Below, piece by piece: positions 1 through 14,443 of a stretch of DNA of 20,417 nt. Position 1 is the first letter of the stretch. Every line of letters starts with the position of its first letter. This stretch comes from a virus (taxonomy: Duplodnaviria > Heunggongvirae > Uroviricota > Caudoviricetes), in the IMG/VR virus record IMGVR_UViG_2778261646_000019; one strand, written 5' to 3'. A program made the position numbers and the translations under genes. The notes beneath the pieces were generated by a model that had not been told where the DNA came from, did not search any database, and saw only the letters and a program-made list of their open reading frames with translations.

Positions 1-72
1 GCTCTGACTTTCCAGAACCATACGGACTGCCCGTTGACGGACTTCGGGGGAAAAACGAGTATTTTTAGTCAT
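1..72 (-). CDS. IS3-family transposase OrfA, N-terminal 24 codons (partial, cut by window edge)
   Basis: Minus-strand translation from the ATG at 72..70 gives MTKNTRFSPEVRQRAVRMVLESQS, matching the characteristic N-terminus of IS629/IS1203-type OrfA (MTKNTRFSPEVRQRAVRMVLESQ...). Not in the ORF track because it is truncated. Confidence 0.7.
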   Translation of the reverse strand, partial: MTKNTRFSPEVRQRAVRMVLESQS

Positions 73-126
73 CCTGTTTACCTCTTTCTCAGGAAGTTTA
101 GTCTCCAGGATTCCCGGGGCGGTTCA
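1..126 (-). mobile_element. IS3-family insertion sequence, terminal part (IS629/IS1203-like); continues beyond the left window edge
   Basis: Reverse complement of 73..126 reads TGAACCGCCCCGGGAATCCTGGAGACTAAACTTCCTGAGAAAGAGGTAAACAGG, an IS3-family terminal inverted repeat (TGAACCGCCCCGGG...) followed by an RBS and the ATG at 72..70. Element end placed at 126. Family assignment is from memory of IS629-like ends, not a search. Confidence 0.75.
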
Positions 127-1236: not shown

Positions 1237-3002
1237 CAAAAAATCTCCACAATATTGCTGGTATTGGCGGACTCGCCCTGCAGCGGTTCGTTAAACAGTG
1301 CGTGCATTGTTGCCCAGGCCAGATCGGCATGGCTGGCTTCTTCGCTGCGGCTGGCTTCATAGGTCGGGCGGTTGCCACTGGCAGTGGTAGCGCGACGGAT
1401 TGCCATAAATGACTGCGCAATGTCGGTGTGCCCGGCGTCAAACTCCAGACGGCGGTGGCTGATAATGTCGTAGGCCTTGAGTACCAGGGCGTTTTTAACA
1501 TTGGGGTTGTAGACAAACTCCCGGACGGCAGGAAAGAACGCTTTCACGTTCTCATAAACCCCGTGACCAACGCCGGTTGAGTCGATACCGATATAGGTCA
1601 CGTTGTACTGTTCGGTCAGTTTTTTGATGGCGTCAGCCTGGGCGCGGAAGTCCATCCCGCGCCACTGGTGACGCTCAAGAATGCGGAACTTACCACCAGG
1701 CACGGCTGGCGGTGCCACCACCACGCATCCGGCGCTGTCGCCGTTTTGCGTACCTTTTGCCGGGTCATAACCGATCCACACTTCGCGCCAGCCAAACGGG
1801 CGCAGAGCCAGTGCATGAAAGTCGGTCCAGACTTCCCAGCTGTCCACCATGCACGCCTGCAGCTCGCTGAGCGGAAATACGGACGCGAGATCGTCCACAA
1901 ACTCGCACATCAGCAGGTTCTGGTATTCGTCTGGGCTGTACTCCATGCGCAACTGGTCAAGGTCGAACAGGTTACAGCCGCCGCGCACCGCATCTTCCAC
2001 GGTGACTATCTGGCGGTATTGCCCGTCTGCGCACAGCAGGCCGGGGGCCAGATTGCTGTGGGACAGGTCGATGTCCACCTTGTCGGCCTTGTTGCGCCCA
2101 CGGTTGAACAGCGCACCGGACCAGAACGGATAAGCACTGTGTGTCAGGCTGGATGGCGTGGAAAAATAGGTTTGTCGCCATTTTTTGTGAATAGCCATAC
2201 CGGAAGCCACTTTGCGCAGCTCCTGGAATTTCGGTATCCAGAAATATTCATCCAGATACAGGTTGCCGTGATAACTCTGGGCCGTGCGGGCATTGGTGCC
2301 GAGGAAGTAAAGCGTGGCCCCGTTAGGAAGCACCATCGGATCGCCTTTCAACTCCACCCCCACTTCTTTGGCGAAGTCGATGATGTACTGCTTAAAGACG
2401 TGGGCCTGTGCCTTGCTGGCGGAAAGGAAAATCTGGTTACGTCCGGTAAGCAGGGCGTCAATCAGGGCTTCACGGGCAAAGTAAAAGGTCGCGCCGATCT
2501 GGCGTGACTTCAGCAGGTTGCGGATGCGGTTGGTTTTTCCGGCTTCCCACCAGTGGCGCTGGTAGTTGAACATGGAGGAATGGAAGATTTCTTCCAGCTT
2601 CTCAATCTGCTCATCGGTGAAAACATTCTTTTCCGGCTGACGGCGTGGGCCTTTATTGCGGTTGGCGACGTTAGGGTTTAAGTCGGCTTCGTTGCCGCCA
2701 TTGTTAAACTTGCCGATCCGCGCGTGGCGCTCCGACTGGCGCGCCAGCAGGTCAATCTCTTTGAAATCTTTCCCTTCTTTGTGCTCCTTCATGATGAGCT
2801 GGCAGTAGCGTGCGGCGGTGGTGAGCTGCATCTGATCCAGCGGCCCATAGTCACCCCACTTGTCGCGTTTTTTCCAGCTGTGAACGGTTGCAACTTTCTC
2901 GCCCAGCATTTCAGCAATGCGGGCTACGCGGTATCCCTGAAAGTACAGCAGCATGGCCTGCCGACGGGGATCGAGATCTGCGGGTGTCAGTGTGGTGTTC
3001 AT
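1236..3002 (-). CDS. P: Terminase large subunit (ATPase/nuclease, P2 gpP-like)
   Basis: 588-aa ORF with ATG start at 3002..3000, leftward and adjacent to Q, divergent from O as in P2. Size matches P2 P (about 590 aa). Confidence 0.9.
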   Translation of the reverse strand: MNTTLTPADLDPRRQAMLLYFQGYRVARIAEMLGEKVATVHSWKKRDKWGDYGPLDQMQLTTAARYCQLIMKEHKEGKDFKEIDLLARQSERHARIGKFNNGGNEADLNPNVANRNKGPRRQPEKNVFTDEQIEKLEEIFHSSMFNYQRHWWEAGKTNRIRNLLKSRQIGATFYFAREALIDALLTGRNQIFLSASKAQAHVFKQYIIDFAKEVGVELKGDPMVLPNGATLYFLGTNARTAQSYHGNLYLDEYFWIPKFQELRKVASGMAIHKKWRQTYFSTPSSLTHSAYPFWSGALFNRGRNKADKVDIDLSHSNLAPGLLCADGQYRQIVTVEDAVRGGCNLFDLDQLRMEYSPDEYQNLLMCEFVDDLASVFPLSELQACMVDSWEVWTDFHALALRPFGWREVWIGYDPAKGTQNGDSAGCVVVAPPAVPGGKFRILERHQWRGMDFRAQADAIKKLTEQYNVTYIGIDSTGVGHGVYENVKAFFPAVREFVYNPNVKNALVLKAYDIISHRRLEFDAGHTDIAQSFMAIRRATTASGNRPTYEASRSEEASHADLAWATMHALFNEPLQGESANTSNIVEIF

Positions 3003-8119: not shown

Positions 8120-8513
8120 AGCGGTGCCTTATGTCCGCAATAACCCGGACAAACTGCATCTGTTTGTGGATAACGGTTCGCTGGTTGCCACGGGGGCCAG
8201 CTCCATGTCATGGGAGTACCGCTACACCCTGAACGTGGTGATTGAGGATTTCAGCGGCGACCAGAATCTGCTGATGGCCCCGGTTTTGCTGTGGCTGCGT
8301 GATAACCAGCCCGATGCCATCAATAACCCGGCGTTACGGGAAAAGCTATTCACCTTTGAGGTGGATATTCTGCGCAACGATGTCTGTGATATCAGCCTCA
8401 ACCTGCAACTGACGGAGCGTGTGCTGGTCAGCACTGACGGCAGTGTGTCGAGCGTTGAAGCTATAGCGGAACCTGATGAACCTGAAGAAATGTGGACGGT
8501 GAAACGTGGCTGA
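8082..8513 (+). CDS. R: Tail completion protein (P2 gpR-like)
   Basis: Track ORF 8061..8513 begins at a TTG; the GTG at 8082 has an AGGAG RBS 7 nt upstream and is the likely start. The sequence (KPQSLRHAL...FVDNGS...YTLNVV...LTERVLVS) matches my recollection of P2 R. Confidence 0.8.
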   Translation: MNKPQSLRHALNKAVPYVRNNPDKLHLFVDNGSLVATGASSMSWEYRYTLNVVIEDFSGDQNLLMAPVLLWLRDNQPDAINNPALREKLFTFEVDILRNDVCDISLNLQLTERVLVSTDGSVSSVEAIAEPDEPEEMWTVKRG

Positions 8514-9955: not shown

Positions 9956-10850
9956 CCTTTCGCAGTTGCCTGCACCGCAGATTGTGGATGTGCCGGACTT
10001 TGAGACGCTGCTTGCCGAACGCAAGGCAGAATTTGTGGCGCTTCATCCGAAAGATGAGCAGGAAGCAGTGATCCGCACGCTGGAACTGGAATCTGAACCC
10101 GCCACTAAATTGTTGCAGGAGAACGCTTACCGTGAGTTGCTTCTGCGCCAGCGCATTAACGAAGCCGCGCAGGCGGTGATGGTGGCTTACGCGATGGGCG
10201 GCGATCTTGACCAGCTCGCTGCCAACTACAACGTGACACGCCTGACGGTGACGCCTGCTGATAATGATGCTGTGCCGCCCGTTGCAGCTGTGATGGAAAG
10301 CGATGAAGCGTTGCGCCTGCGTGTGCCTGCAGCCTTTGAAGGGCTTTCTGTTGCGGGGCCAACTGCAGCTTATGAATTTCATGCCCGAAGCGCCGACGGT
10401 CGGGTGGCGGATGCCAGTGCAACCAGCCCGGCACCTGCAGAGGTGGTGCTGACTGTCCTTAGCCGCGAAGGCGATGGAACTGCAGAAAAAGACCTGCTGG
10501 ACGTGGTGGAAAAAGCTCTGAACAGTGAGAACGTCCGCCCGGTGGCTGACCGTCTTACGGTTCGCAGCGCAGAAATCATCCCGTATCGCGTGGAAGCCAC
10601 CATTTTTCTCTATCCTGGACCGGAAGCAGAGCCGGTAATGGCAGCGGCAAAAGCCAGCCTGCAGAAGTACATCGCCAGTCAGACGCGTCTTGGTCGGGAT
10701 ATTCGCCGTAGCGCCATCTTTGCCGCCCTGCATGTTGAGGGGGTGCAGCGTGTGGAGCTGGCTTCTCCTCTGGCGGATGTGGTCCTGAACAAAACACAGG
10801 CGGCATCATGTACGCAGTGGAGCGTAACCAACGGAGGAACGGATGAATAG
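9942..10850 (+). CDS. J: Baseplate protein (P2 gpJ-like)
   Basis: ATG at 9942 with AGGAG RBS gives 302 aa, the same length as P2 J (the track ORF starts at an upstream GTG, 9903). N-terminus MAVIDLSQLPAP resembles P2 J. Confidence 0.85.
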   Translation: MAVIDLSQLPAPQIVDVPDFETLLAERKAEFVALHPKDEQEAVIRTLELESEPATKLLQENAYRELLLRQRINEAAQAVMVAYAMGGDLDQLAANYNVTRLTVTPADNDAVPPVAAVMESDEALRLRVPAAFEGLSVAGPTAAYEFHARSADGRVADASATSPAPAEVVLTVLSREGDGTAEKDLLDVVEKALNSENVRPVADRLTVRSAEIIPYRVEATIFLYPGPEAEPVMAAAKASLQKYIASQTRLGRDIRRSAIFAALHVEGVQRVELASPLADVVLNKTQAASCTQWSVTNGGTDE

Positions 10851-11448
10851 TCTGCTGCCACCGGGTTCAACACCACTGGAGTGCCGACTGGCGCAAACCT
10901 GCAGCGGGATTTCTGATCTGCAGGTGCCGCTTCGTGATTTGTGGAATCCGGCAACCTGTCCGGTCAGTTTCCTGCCTTATCTCGCCTGGGCGTTCTCTGT
11001 GGATCGCTGGGACGAGGGCTGGACAGAAAGCGTCAAGCGCCAGGTGGTGAAGGATGCTTTTTATATTCATCAGCATAAAGGGACCACCAGTGCCGTGCGG
11101 CGGGTGGTGGAGCCGTTCGGATTCCTGATCCGCATTATTGAGTGGTGGCAGACCGGAGAAACACCGGGCACGTTTCGCCTGGATATCGGCGTGCAGGACC
11201 AGGGCATCACTGAAGATACCTATCTGGAACTTGAGCGACTGATAAGCGATGCCAAACCATGTAGCCGCCACATGATCGGCATGTCCATCAATCTGCAGAC
11301 CAGCGGCCCGCATTGGGTGGGAGCCGCCAGCTATCTTGGCGAAGAAATCACGATCTATCCGTATATCAACGAAACGATTATTTCCGGTGGCACCGCGCAT
11401 GAAGGCGGGGCGGTCCATGTTATTGACACAATGAGAGTGAATCCATGA
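10843..11448 (+). CDS. I: Baseplate/tail fibre attachment protein (P2 gpI-like)
   Basis: 201 aa; between J and H, with overlapping start and stop codons on both sides. Confidence 0.8.
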   Translation: MNSLLPPGSTPLECRLAQTCSGISDLQVPLRDLWNPATCPVSFLPYLAWAFSVDRWDEGWTESVKRQVVKDAFYIHQHKGTTSAVRRVVEPFGFLIRIIEWWQTGETPGTFRLDIGVQDQGITEDTYLELERLISDAKPCSRHMIGMSINLQTSGPHWVGAASYLGEEITIYPYINETIISGGTAHEGGAVHVIDTMRVNP

Positions 11449-12524
11449 GCACAAAATTTTATACCCTGCTGACGGATATTGGCGCGGCGAAACTTGCCAG
11501 CGCCGCCGCGCTCGGTGTGCCGCTAAAAATTACCCATATGGCGGTGGGCGATGGCGGTGGAGTATTGCCAACGCCGGACGCAAAGCAGACGGCACTGGTA
11601 AATGAGAAACGCCGGGCTGCGCTGAATATGCTTTATATCGACCCGCAGAACAGCAGCCAGATTATTGCCGAACAGGTGATCCCTGAAAACGAGGGCGGTT
11701 GGTGGATACGTGAAGTGGGCCTGTTTGATGAGTCAGGTGCATTGATTGCCGTGGGCAACTGCCCGGAAAGCTATAAGCCGCAACTGGCTGAAGGTAGCGG
11801 GCGCACTCAGACCGTGCGCATGGTGCTGATTACCAGCAGCACGGACAATATCACCCTGAAAATCGACCCTGCTGTAGTGCTGGCAACCCGCAAGTATGTG
11901 GATGACAAGGCACTGGAGCTGAAGGTGTACGCGGATGATCAGATGGCAAAACATCTTGCCGCACCGGACCCGCATTCACAGTACGCGCCAAAAGCCAGCC
12001 CGACATTTACCGGAACCCCCAAAGCGCCAACGCCAGCGGCGGGGAATAATACCACGCAGGTTGCGACCACTGCGTTTGTACAGGCGGCACTGACGGCCCT
12101 TATTAATGGTGCGCCAGCCACGCTGGACACGCTGAAAGAAATAGCCGCAGCCATTAACAATGATCCGAATTTCAGTACCACCATTAACAATGCGCTGGCA
12201 CTAAAAGCACCGTTGTCGAGTCCGGCACTCACCGGAACGCCAACAGCCCCCACGGCGGCGCAGTCGGTCAACAATACACAGATTGCCACTACGGCTTTTG
12301 TGAAATCGGCGATTGCAGGAATGGTGGGTTCTGCACCTGCTGCACTGGATACACTGAACGAACTGGCGGCGGCACTGGGGAATGATCCGAACTTTGCCAC
12401 GACAATGCTTAATGCGCTGGCAGGTAAACAACCGCTGGACAATACGCTTACCAATTTGAGTGGAAAGGATGTAGCTGGTCTTCTCCCAAACCAACGTTTA
12501 AGAAAATGCAGAGGTAACAGCTAA
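11445..12524 (+). CDS. H: Tail fibre protein, conserved N-terminal part only (P2 gpH-like); truncated, ends 18 bp after a hix-like crossover site
   Basis: 359 aa against about 669 aa for P2 H. The N-terminal half matches P2 H (MAVGDGGG, ESYKP.LAEGSGR, LNELAAALGNDPNFATTM.NALAGKQP), but the ORF stops after ...LLPNQRLRKCRGNS; the receptor-binding C-terminus is absent. Confidence 0.8.
   Translation: MSTKFYTLLTDIGAAKLASAAALGVPLKITHMAVGDGGGVLPTPDAKQTALVNEKRRAALNMLYIDPQNSSQIIAEQVIPENEGGWWIREVGLFDESGALIAVGNCPESYKPQLAEGSGRTQTVRMVLITSSTDNITLKIDPAVVLATRKYVDDKALELKVYADDQMAKHLAAPDPHSQYAPKASPTFTGTPKAPTPAAGNNTTQVATTAFVQAALTALINGAPATLDTLKEIAAAINNDPNFSTTINNALALKAPLSSPALTGTPTAPTAAQSVNNTQIATTAFVKSAIAGMVGSAPAALDTLNELAAALGNDPNFATTMLNALAGKQPLDNTLTNLSGKDVAGLLPNQRLRKCRGNS
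12000..12438 (+). repeat. Tandem duplication of about 220 bp (two ~73-aa repeat units) inside the tail fibre gene
   Basis: Repeat units beginning ...PTFTGTPKAPTPAAGNNTTQVATTAFV... and ...PALTGTPTAPTAAQSVNNTQIATTAFV..., both ending in ...NDPNF.TT..NALA.K.PL; DNA similarity is visible (aatgatccgaatttcagtacc... near 12162 versus aatgatccgaactttgccacg... near 12382). Confidence 0.7.
12481..12506. other. Candidate invertase crossover site (hix/gix/cix-like, 26 bp) at the 3' end of H
   Basis: TTCTCCCAAACCAACGTTTAAGAAAA matches my recalled hixL sequence (TTCTTGAAAACCAAGGTTTTTGATAA) at 19 of 26 positions, including the AAACC-AA core; it sits 50-80 bp upstream of the invertase gene. No second copy was seen in the window. 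Confidence 0.5.
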
Positions 12525-12561
12525 CTGGCATCATCTCCGGTTTTTATTCAGGGGGATGATC

Positions 12562-13128
12562 ATGCTTATTGGCTATGTACGCGTGTCAACAAATGACCAG
12601 AACACCGATTTGCAACGTAATGCACTGAACTGCGCGGGATGTGAGCAGATTTTTGAGGACAAAATCAGTGGCACTAAGTCCGACAGACCGGGGCTGAAAA
12701 AACTACTCAGGACACTATCGGCAGGAGACACGCTGGTTGTCTGGAAGCTGGACAGGTTGGGGCGCAGTATGCGGCATCTTGTTACGCTGATAGAAGAGTT
12801 GCGCCAGCGTGGTGTGAATTTCAGAAGCCTGACTGACAGTATTGATACCAGTACCCCAATGGGCCGTTTCTTTTTTCATGTCATGGGTGCCCTGGCTGAA
12901 ATGGAACGCGAACTGATAGTTGAACGTACCAGGGCAGGGCTGGCTGCAGCTCGTGCCAAAGGCAGAGTAGGTGGACGCCGTCCTAAGTTGACCACCGAAC
13001 AGTGGGCACAGATTGGGCGTTTACTCGAGGCCGGAGAATCAAGACAGCGTATTGCACTGATTTTTGATGTAGGCGTTTCTACCATTTATAGAAAATTTCC
13101 GGCAAATAAGATCAATGAATCCCCCTGA
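12562..13128 (+). CDS. Serine DNA invertase, Hin/Gin/Pin/Cin family
   Basis: Near-identical over long stretches to my recollection of Hin/Pin (MLIGYVRVSTNDQNTDLQRNAL...GDTLVVWKLDRLGRSM...FRSLTDSIDT...MGRFFFHVMGALAEMERELIVERT.AGLAAARAKGR.GGR), with the catalytic Ser in VRVSTNDQ and a C-terminal HTH. The ATG at 12562 follows a GGGGGA RBS (the track ORF starts two codons earlier). Confidence 0.9.
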   Translation: MLIGYVRVSTNDQNTDLQRNALNCAGCEQIFEDKISGTKSDRPGLKKLLRTLSAGDTLVVWKLDRLGRSMRHLVTLIEELRQRGVNFRSLTDSIDTSTPMGRFFFHVMGALAEMERELIVERTRAGLAAARAKGRVGGRRPKLTTEQWAQIGRLLEAGESRQRIALIFDVGVSTIYRKFPANKINESP

Positions 13129-13176
13129 ATCAGCATTATGTTGATTATCCCTGCAAGCAGACAAATACCGTTATTT

Positions 13177-13194
13177 TGTGTGAATAACGACACA
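13177..13194. promoter_or_regulatory. Ogr/Delta-type late promoter site (TGT-N12-ACA) for the FI operon
   Basis: TGTgtgaataacgacACA read directly, 85 bp upstream of the FI start, in the invertase-FI intergenic region. Confidence 0.6.
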
Positions 13195-13270
13195 ACTGCG
13201 CTTAGCTGTTTGTCAGGCACAATCACTTCAACATAGGGCGAAGCCTAATCCAATCAGGAGGTTCGCCACT

Positions 13271-14443
13271 ATGGCTCAGGATTACCACCACGGGGTGCGC
13301 GTTGTTGAAGTCAACGAAGGTACCCGATCTATTACCACGGTGAGCACCGCCATCGTGGGTATGGTCTGCACGGGCGATGATGCCGATGCAAAAATGTTTC
13401 CTCTTAATAAACCCGTGCTGATCACTGATGTGCTGACTGCCAGCGGTAAAGCGGGTGAGTCAGGTACTCTGGCCCGTTCGCTGGATGCCATCGCTGACCA
13501 GGCAAAACCCGTGACCATTGTTGTGCGTGTGCCGCAGGGTGAAACGGAAGACGAAACCACGACCAATATCATCGGCGCAGTGACTGCTGAAGGTAAAAAA
13601 ACAGGTATGAAAGCCCTGTTATCTGCCCAGTCACAGCTCGGCGTTAAACCGCGCATTCTCGGCGTGCCAGGCCACGACACCAAGGCGGTAGCTACTGAGT
13701 TGCTGAGCGTGGCGCAAAGCCTGCGTGGATTTGCTTACCTGTCAGCGTATGGCTGCAAGACAGTGCAGGAGGCGATCACTTACCGCGAAAACTTCAGCCA
13801 GCGCGAAGGGATGCTGATCTGGCCTGACTTTACTGGCTGGGACACGGTGCTGAATGCCGAAGCAACGGCATATGCCACCGCCCGTGCGCTTGGTCTGCGC
13901 GCCAAAATTGACGAGCAGACCGGATGGCACAAAAGCCTGTCCAACGTGGGCGTGAACGGTGTCACCGGAATTTCTGCAGATGTGTTCTGGGATCTGCAGG
14001 ACCCGGCAACCGATGCAGGTCTGCTGAACCAGAACGACGTCACCACGCTTGTGCGTAAAGACGGTTTCCGCTTCTGGGGTTCCCGCTGCCTGAGTGATGA
14101 CCCGCTCTTTGCCTTCGAAAACTACACCCGCACGGCGCAGGTGCTGATGGACACGATGGCAGAAGCACACATGTGGGCGGTGGATAAACCGCTTAACCCG
14201 TCGCTGGCCCGCGACATTATCGAAGGTATCCGCGCCAAAATGCGCAGCCTGGTCAGTCAGGGCTATCTCATTGGTGGTGATTGCTGGCTGGATGAGTCGG
14301 TGAACGACAAAGACACGCTGAAAGCCGGAAAACTCACCATCGACTACGACTACACGCCAGTGCCGCCACTTGAAAACCTGATGCTGCGTCAGCGCATCAC
14401 CGATCAGTACCTGGTTAATTTCGCCAGCCAGGTCAGCGCGTAA
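13271..14443 (+). CDS. FI: Contractile tail sheath protein (P2 gpFI-like)
   Basis: 390 aa (P2 FI is about 396 aa); AGGAGG RBS; followed by the tube gene. Confidence 0.9.

Follow-up and report, generated by a model that had tools for sequence, protein, structure and literature searches.

A deletion of the invertible tail fibre cassette very probably explains the short H gene beside a serine invertase in a P2-family prophage of Escherichia coli

Why does a P2-family prophage encode a tail fibre protein H of 359 aa, when that of P2 has 669 aa (2010 nt), and why is the gene followed by a recombinase gene and not by a tail fibre assembly gene? We examined this question in a stretch of 20,417 nucleotides (the window), which comprises the late genes of a P2-family prophage of E. 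coli and is 100% identical to NLXL01000035.1 of the NCBI draft assembly GCA_002513485.1. Q and P are located on the minus strand, while the plus strand carries, in this order, O, N, M, L, X, holin, lysozyme and lysA/B/C genes, R, S, V, W, J, I, H, the recombinase gene, FI, FII, E, T, U, D and ogr. The features on which the argument depends are compiled in Table 1. The TGT-N12-ACA dyad upstream of FI, which we take to be a late-promoter activator site from what is known of P2 and 186, has counterparts upstream of the P/O and V operons (positions 2991, 3049 and 8957). An Rfam scan of the window gave no match, and a promoter and terminator scan of the window gave no candidate above chance.

Table 1 Features of the H-FI interval and further sites referred to in the text, in window coordinates
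Feature	Position	Strand	Remark
Terminal part of an IS3-family element, adjacent to the portal gene Q	1..126	-	Draft contig breaks here
Gene I (baseplate), upstream neighbour of H	10843..11448	+	Pfam Tail_P2_I, E = 9.9e-54
H, whole open reading frame, 359 aa	11445..12524	+	
Constant part of H, codons 1-347	11445..12485	+	N-terminal fibre domain and two shaft repeats
Deletion joint, microhomology (C)TTCTC, 5-6 bp	12480..12485	.	Bases with which both siteL and siteR begin in the parent
Single remaining 26-bp crossover site TTCTCCCAAACC-AA-CGTTTAAGAAAA	12481..12506	+	Core at 12493..12494; identical to siteR of the siblings
Twelve junk codons PNQRLRKCRGNS and stop	12486..12524	+	Reading frame continues through crossover site and invertase leader
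Din-family serine DNA invertase, 188 aa	12562..13128	+	Intact, Ser9 present; Pfam Resolvase and HTH_7
TGT-N12-ACA dyad TGTGTGAATAACGACACA upstream of FI	13177..13194	+	An activator site is annotated at the corresponding position of P2
FI tail sheath gene	13271..14443	+	Intact in the window; Pfam sheath domains
Quasi crossover site GCGACATTATCG AA GGTATCCGCGCC in FI	14211..14236	+	Unused in the window; recombined with siteL in AR_0013 and AF57

The original prediction, made from the window alone, stated that H is much shorter than its P2 counterpart, that the fibre lacks both its receptor-binding C-terminus and its chaperone, and that only an invertase lies between H and the dyad upstream of FI. 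All of these observations were confirmed. Analysis of the open reading frames showed that the serine recombinase gene is the only gene between the stop codon of H and FI. PF12571 (aa 1-150, E = 7.6e-65) is the sole Pfam domain in H of the window, and the C-terminal receptor-binding tip is absent, as no Collar or Gp53-like_C domain was detected by Pfam. When the variable tips of sibling prophages and both of their assembly proteins were compared with the 20.4-kb window by tblastn, nothing significant was obtained with the exception of a 20-aa vestige on the minus strand (12531..12472); a Caudo_TAP assembly gene downstream of H is thus missing, with neither sibling chaperone matched in the window. 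By analogy to the fibres of P2, Mu and P1, the remaining stub could attach to the baseplate, but any particles would presumably not adsorb, because the stub has neither the receptor-binding tip nor the chaperone for its folding.

The choice of P2 H as a yardstick turned out to be misleading. Similarity of the window protein to P2 H extends to about aa 332, at 53% identity, but intact fibres of the same prophage comprise 465-516 aa, of which 347 aa are constant; fibres of about 360 aa, which had been named as the finding that would speak against a truncation, were thus not seen in close relatives. Amino acids 1-347 of the window protein are 100% identical to those of the 468-aa H of APEC O18 and of the 516-aa H of CE10, and the divergence from intact fibres falls exactly at the crossover site. 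At this point intact relatives continue with ...AGLL-TYLGLGEAAKR..., while the window protein runs into the junk codons.

In order to identify the parental arrangement, we made use of the chromosomal flank. The DNA beyond ogr consists of a truncated LysR/ptrR gene followed by sad, and this flank is 100% identical to that of E. coli IAI39, CE10, AR_0013, N32 and AF57. In each of the five, this prophage occupies the ptrR/sad locus, and its identity to the window amounts to 99.83-99.99%. The 516-aa H of CE10 consists of the 347 constant residues and 169 residues with a Collar domain; it is followed by tfaE, an inverted second chaperone gene, an inverted alternative tip and the invertase gene. In N32, the segment of CE10 is inverted, and H is a 465-aa protein with a Gp53-like_C tip. 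Two Caudo_TAP chaperones are encoded in the cassette of both genomes, and the cassette is flanked by two inverted crossover sites 1,863 bp apart, siteL (TTCTCACATACC-TT-GGTTTGGGAGAA) and siteR (TTCTCCCAAACC-AA-CGTTTAAGAAAA). The window is colinear with CE10 and N32 except for a gap of 1,863 bp. This deletion between the two crossover sites had not been noticed in the first reading of the window. The idea that a fibre domain encoded downstream is attached to H by another mechanism, which had been put forward as a second objection to a truncation, therefore holds for the relatives, where attachment occurs by DNA inversion, but not for the window, where the downstream DNA is gone.

The other three genomes carry lesions of their own. 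In IAI39, most of the segment together with the invertase gene is replaced by IS26, whereas AR_0013 and AF57 show a 3.6-kb inversion between siteL and the quasi-site inside FI, by which both H and FI are broken; the exchange took place exactly at the core dinucleotide. RM10809-3 (99.6% identical in this region, with an insert of 1,373 bp) was initially regarded as a parent and was dropped in favour of the same-locus siblings. In addition, 'partial' H proteins of 339-354 aa were considered as natural short fibres and rejected; they end in or just before siteL, as would be expected if contigs had broken at the inverted repeat.

The recombinase itself is intact. Its ATG is at 12562, while the mechanically called open reading frame starts at 12556, and its N-terminus MLIGYVRVS contains Ser9. 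PF00239 (E = 2e-53) and PF02796 (E = 1e-15) were identified, and the Gin structure 3UJ3 matches aa 1-184 (E = 3e-93). In size, catalytic domain, serine and helix-turn-helix, the protein conforms to the Din-family serine DNA invertases Hin, Gin, Cin, Pin and Fin. The DNA of AR_0013 is 100% identical to the window over 12481..14229, and the same invertase allele, WP_000905010.1, adjoins the segment, which is oriented one way in CE10 and the other way in N32, as well as the core-precise quasi-site inversions in AR_0013 and AF57. These arrangements indirectly suggest that the allele is capable of inversion. A Din-type crossover site, which had been overlooked before, is present within the last codons of H; its 2-bp core is flanked by two inverted 12-bp halves that match imperfectly. 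The window contains a single copy, with none expected by chance, so that one of the two inverted 26-bp sites that accompany such an enzyme was found. The protein is thus a member of the family, but the inversion system of the window is incomplete because the partner site is gone.

The joint was mapped in BLAST comparisons of the window with CE10, N32 and AR_0013, in which two colinear blocks overlapped at 12480/12481..12492. The H flank ...GATGTAGCTGGTC is joined to a complete siteR, and the joint reads GGTC/TTCTCCCAAACC. Hence, TTCTC on the H flank is followed by CCAAACC, the inner half of siteR, and not by ACATACC of its own outer half. The crossover must therefore have occurred left of the core, in the (C)TTCTC common to both sites. 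Strand exchange by serine invertases is confined to the 2-bp core, and the flanks keep their own outer half-sites. A canonical reaction of the invertase can therefore not have produced a joint that lies off the core. The two sites are identical at 18 of 26 positions when aligned directly; because each of them is quasi-palindromic, they also form imperfect direct repeats. The two sites share an inverted repeat of 27-39 bp.

Next, we determined how common collapsed and intact arrangements are. At least 80% of 11445..13270 is covered in 23 complete E. coli genomes, and in 22 of the 23 the match is split in two by an extra 1.0-1.9 kb, annotated as a fibre C-terminus, one or more tail fibre assembly proteins and an inverted 'gp53-like' fragment. 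In a set of 5,426 complete E. coli genomes, the junction of the constant part of H with tip A was present in 460 and that with tip B in 33, while H was fused to inverted FI in two and abutted the invertase gene in a single genome, EC16, whose prophage differs from that of the window (about 95.7% identity). The exact joint GCTGGTCTTCTCCCAAACCAA had no match in GTDB representative genomes, IMG/VR or JGI metagenomes. Likewise, no collapsed arrangement of any kind (H flank, 60-90 nt, invertase start) was found in IMG/VR and the GTDB representatives; the intact junction of H flank and siteL, used as a positive control, was found on 83 IMG/VR contigs.

Overall, we consider it very likely, with a probability of roughly 90%, that we are dealing with the fibre module of a Fels-2/186-like P2-family prophage from which the whole 1,863-bp invertible cassette was deleted by ordinary decay. 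The normal layout consists of the 347-codon constant part of H, siteL, an invertible segment of 1.86 kb, siteR and a Gin/Fin-type serine invertase gene, and the segment contains two alternative C-terminal receptor-binding tips and two tail fibre assembly chaperones. In the deletion, (C)TTCTC in the outer half of siteL was joined to the same bases in the inner half of siteR, such that H passes from codon 347 into siteR and terminates 12 codons further on, leaving one site and the intact invertase gene. As judged from the joint sequence alone, the most likely route would be short-homology slippage or illegitimate recombination between the quasi-palindromic sites, which the 27-39-bp inverted repeat could bring together.

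Aberrant resolution between the two sites by the invertase itself would also produce end points that lie in register at the crossover sites. The enzyme seems to have been active in this lineage, given the opposite orientations in CE10 and N32 and the core-precise quasi-site exchange in AR_0013 and AF57, and the independent deletion in EC16 joins the outer half-sites minus exactly the 2-bp core, as if both cores had been cut. In the window, however, a core exchange would have left ACATACC on the H flank, which instead carries CCAAACC. Moreover, inverted sites that are aligned for deletion oppose TT to AA at their cores, and mismatched core nucleotides block ligation (PMC4817059). A deletion catalysed by the invertase is thus unlikely in our view, while it is possible that invertase-mediated synapsis had a helper role in slippage. 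In the literature that was available to us, a search for work on invertase-mediated deletions and quasi-sites returned only general mechanism papers.

It could further be argued that the segment is present in the isolate and was collapsed out of a short-read contig during assembly. The source is indeed a draft with a contig of 41.5 kb, invertible fibre regions trouble assemblers, and many IMG/VR contigs stop at the site; in the 1,317-member cluster at 90% identity, of which 15 proteins are listed, all 14 listed proteins besides that of the window are 'partial' and comprise 339-354 aa. Because such artefacts usually take the form of a contig break and not of a join, because neither parent orientation contains k-mers such as GCTGGTCTTCTCCCAAACC that the joint requires, and because the exact 359-aa product is found on 4-5 contigs from NCBI and Logan assemblies, an assembly error is very improbable. 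Only 5-6 bp are common at the joint, which also speaks against it, and the complete genome of EC16 shows that collapsed states occur. It is possible that the deletion was carried by a minority of the source isolate or by a mixed population. Even less credible, and almost certainly incorrect, is a reading related to the original prediction, namely that the fibre is naturally short or completed in trans and that the invertase is unrelated cargo in the Z/fun hotspot. It is true that the invertase gene fills the same interval, from H/G to FI, as fun(Z) of P2. Against this, siblings with 99.8-99.99% identity keep the cassette and their H continues through siteL into the tip domain, the last 12 codons of H in the window are junk derived from siteR, and the invertase of Fels-2 belongs to the fibre module. 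The gene is accordingly, like its Fels-2 counterpart, the recombinase gene of the fibre module and does not represent cargo in the Z/fun position.

The deletion of the cassette affected a prophage that was already damaged. Base 1 of the window aligns to position 12235 of L098, within the coding sequence of the IS3 transposase of CE10. In CE10, the whole early/replication region is replaced by an IS3-family element, and a cII fragment, CI, an ISEc53 element, a ClbS-like gene and int are left. The IS3 junction next to Q is common to the window and CE10, implying that the lineage was replication-defective before the fibre deletion, and the loss of the cassette is a further step of decay. Among the six genomes with the prophage at this locus, three independent lesions of the fibre module were found, two of which made use of crossover sites, namely the in-register deletion in the window and the core-precise quasi-site inversion in AR_0013 and AF57. 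The prophage had previously been described as decaying or domesticated. The IS3 junction, the fibre deletion and the lesions in the siblings support decay, while nothing was found in favour of domestication. One might speculate, with only a slight chance of being right, that the fibre-switch module is a self-inflicted weak point of resident P2-family prophages, in which the invertase and the quasi-palindromic sites promote inactivating rearrangements. If this were true, the single site together with a live invertase might provide a docking point where sites of co-resident prophages could recombine with it.

These results are mainly a correction, in that a short H beside an invertase in a P2-family prophage indicates a damaged host-range switch of the Gin/Fin type and not a replacement of the Z/fun cargo. 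They resolve no open question; nonetheless, they provide a clean natural case of switch loss with both parent and product at hand, and the use of a quasi-site in FI suggests that off-target activity of the invertase may be one way in which prophages are inactivated. Of mild interest as by-products are the joint that lies in register and the quasi-site inversion that occurred naturally in the siblings. Secondary ('quasi') crossover sites of Cin, Gin and Hin were reportedly described by Iida and co-workers in the 1980s. The inversions in AR_0013 and AF57 resemble these, since siteL was exchanged at the core with a weakly similar site in FI, whereas the joint of the window is not a core exchange.

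The closest known counterpart is Fels-2 of Salmonella, which shows the same P2-family order: I, H, tfa, an inverted tfa', an inverted alternative H C-terminus, the invertase gene (STM2702) and FI. The N-terminal 257 aa of H are 85% identical between Fels-2 and the window, and STM2702 is 86% identical to the invertase of the window. Compared with Fels-2, the window lacks everything between the constant part of H and the invertase gene and has one site left. P2 itself shares a homologous N-terminal two-thirds of H, FI and the late-promoter dyad in its H-G-fun(Z)-FI region, but differs in its 669-aa H, its one chaperone G, the lack of an invertase and the position of fun(Z) on the opposite strand between G and FI. 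A similar design, in which inversion links the constant portion of a fibre to either of two tips, is known from the G segment of Mu with Gin, the C segment of P1 with Cin and the P segment of e14 with Pin. The likeness to Mu includes one chaperone per tip, 26-bp crossover sites with a 2-bp core and a Gin-like invertase. A cassette of the Mu G type, with two tips and two chaperones between inverted sites, is absent from the window and present in the same-locus siblings. In contrast to Mu G and P1 C, the host element is here a P2-family prophage, and the switch is destroyed in the window. Inversions of invertible tail fibre loci have been shown experimentally for P2-like prophages of E. coli E2348/69 (Goldberg et al. 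2014, PMC4272514). Those loci are of the same kind and from the same species, but they are intact and switching, while the window represents a deletion derivative. The kind of system is thus already known, a Gin/Fin-type fibre switch in a P2-family prophage, and the copy in the window is a decay product of it.

In E. coli AR_0013 and AF57, we found that siteL, one of the inverted crossover sites bounding the invertible fibre cassette, had recombined with a weak quasi crossover site within the tail sheath gene FI, the exchange lying precisely at the core dinucleotide. The inverted stretch spans 3.6 kb, taking in 959 nt from the 5' end of FI as well as the invertase gene. Both the tail fibre gene H and FI are disrupted by the inversion. 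This rearrangement was detected only in these two strains (2/5,426 complete genomes).

Coordinates of the features considered here (L-numbers denote compared genome regions or contigs in their own numbering)
Feature	Position	Strand	Remarks
Quasi crossover site, weak	window 14211..14236		within FI; GCGACATTATCG-AA-GGTATCCGCGCC
Quasi-site inversion, AR_0013 / AF57	L012 1185-1210 and 4778-4803; L014 likewise		
IS3-family element, end	window 1..~126		directly adjoins the portal gene; draft contig breaks inside the element
20-codon vestige	window 12531..12472	minus	matches the annotated start of the CE10 'gp53-like' ORF

Further cassette lesions were observed. In E. coli IAI39, which carries the same prophage at the same locus, IS26 has inserted ~38 codons past siteL (L010 3744-3960), and the remainder of the cassette as well as the invertase gene are absent. 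In a different P2-like prophage, that of E. coli EC16 (NZ_CP189734), the cassette has collapsed independently. The joint (L002 2537-2560) consists of the fused outer half-sites, TTCTCACATACC directly followed by CGTTTATGAAAA, from which precisely the 2-bp core is absent, without microhomology. The appearance of this joint suggests cleavage at both cores and loss of the mismatched overhangs.

The metagenomic viral contig IMGVR_UViG_3300029656_000144 (L047) contains the H flank with siteL twice, at 37-69(+) and 1947-1979(-), the copies being oppositely oriented with 1.9 kb between them. This doubling may be an assembly error in which the invertible segment gave rise to a hairpin. The minus-strand vestige in the window is not a gene here but a by-product of how the silent alternative tip is annotated. 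In CE10, the 'gp53-like' ORF has its annotated start beyond the bounds of the invertible segment, and from there the frame runs through siteR.

Outside the cassette, the IS3-family element found at the window start stands in place of the entire early/replication region of the prophage in CE10. Compared with window 8323..8403, gene R of CE10 (L098) carries an 81-bp tandem duplication, and its product is annotated with 170 aa vs 143 aa called in the window.

A related full-length prophage is present in E. coli RM10809-3 at a different locus, rcdA/ybjL (L009, NZ_CP023165 990000-1029000). Its fibre cassette is degenerate, with a frameshifted H and a partial gp53-like gene, and its portal gene Q is frameshifted as well. 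Between the early region and Q, this prophage harbors DarT/macro-domain genes, which are DarTG-like.
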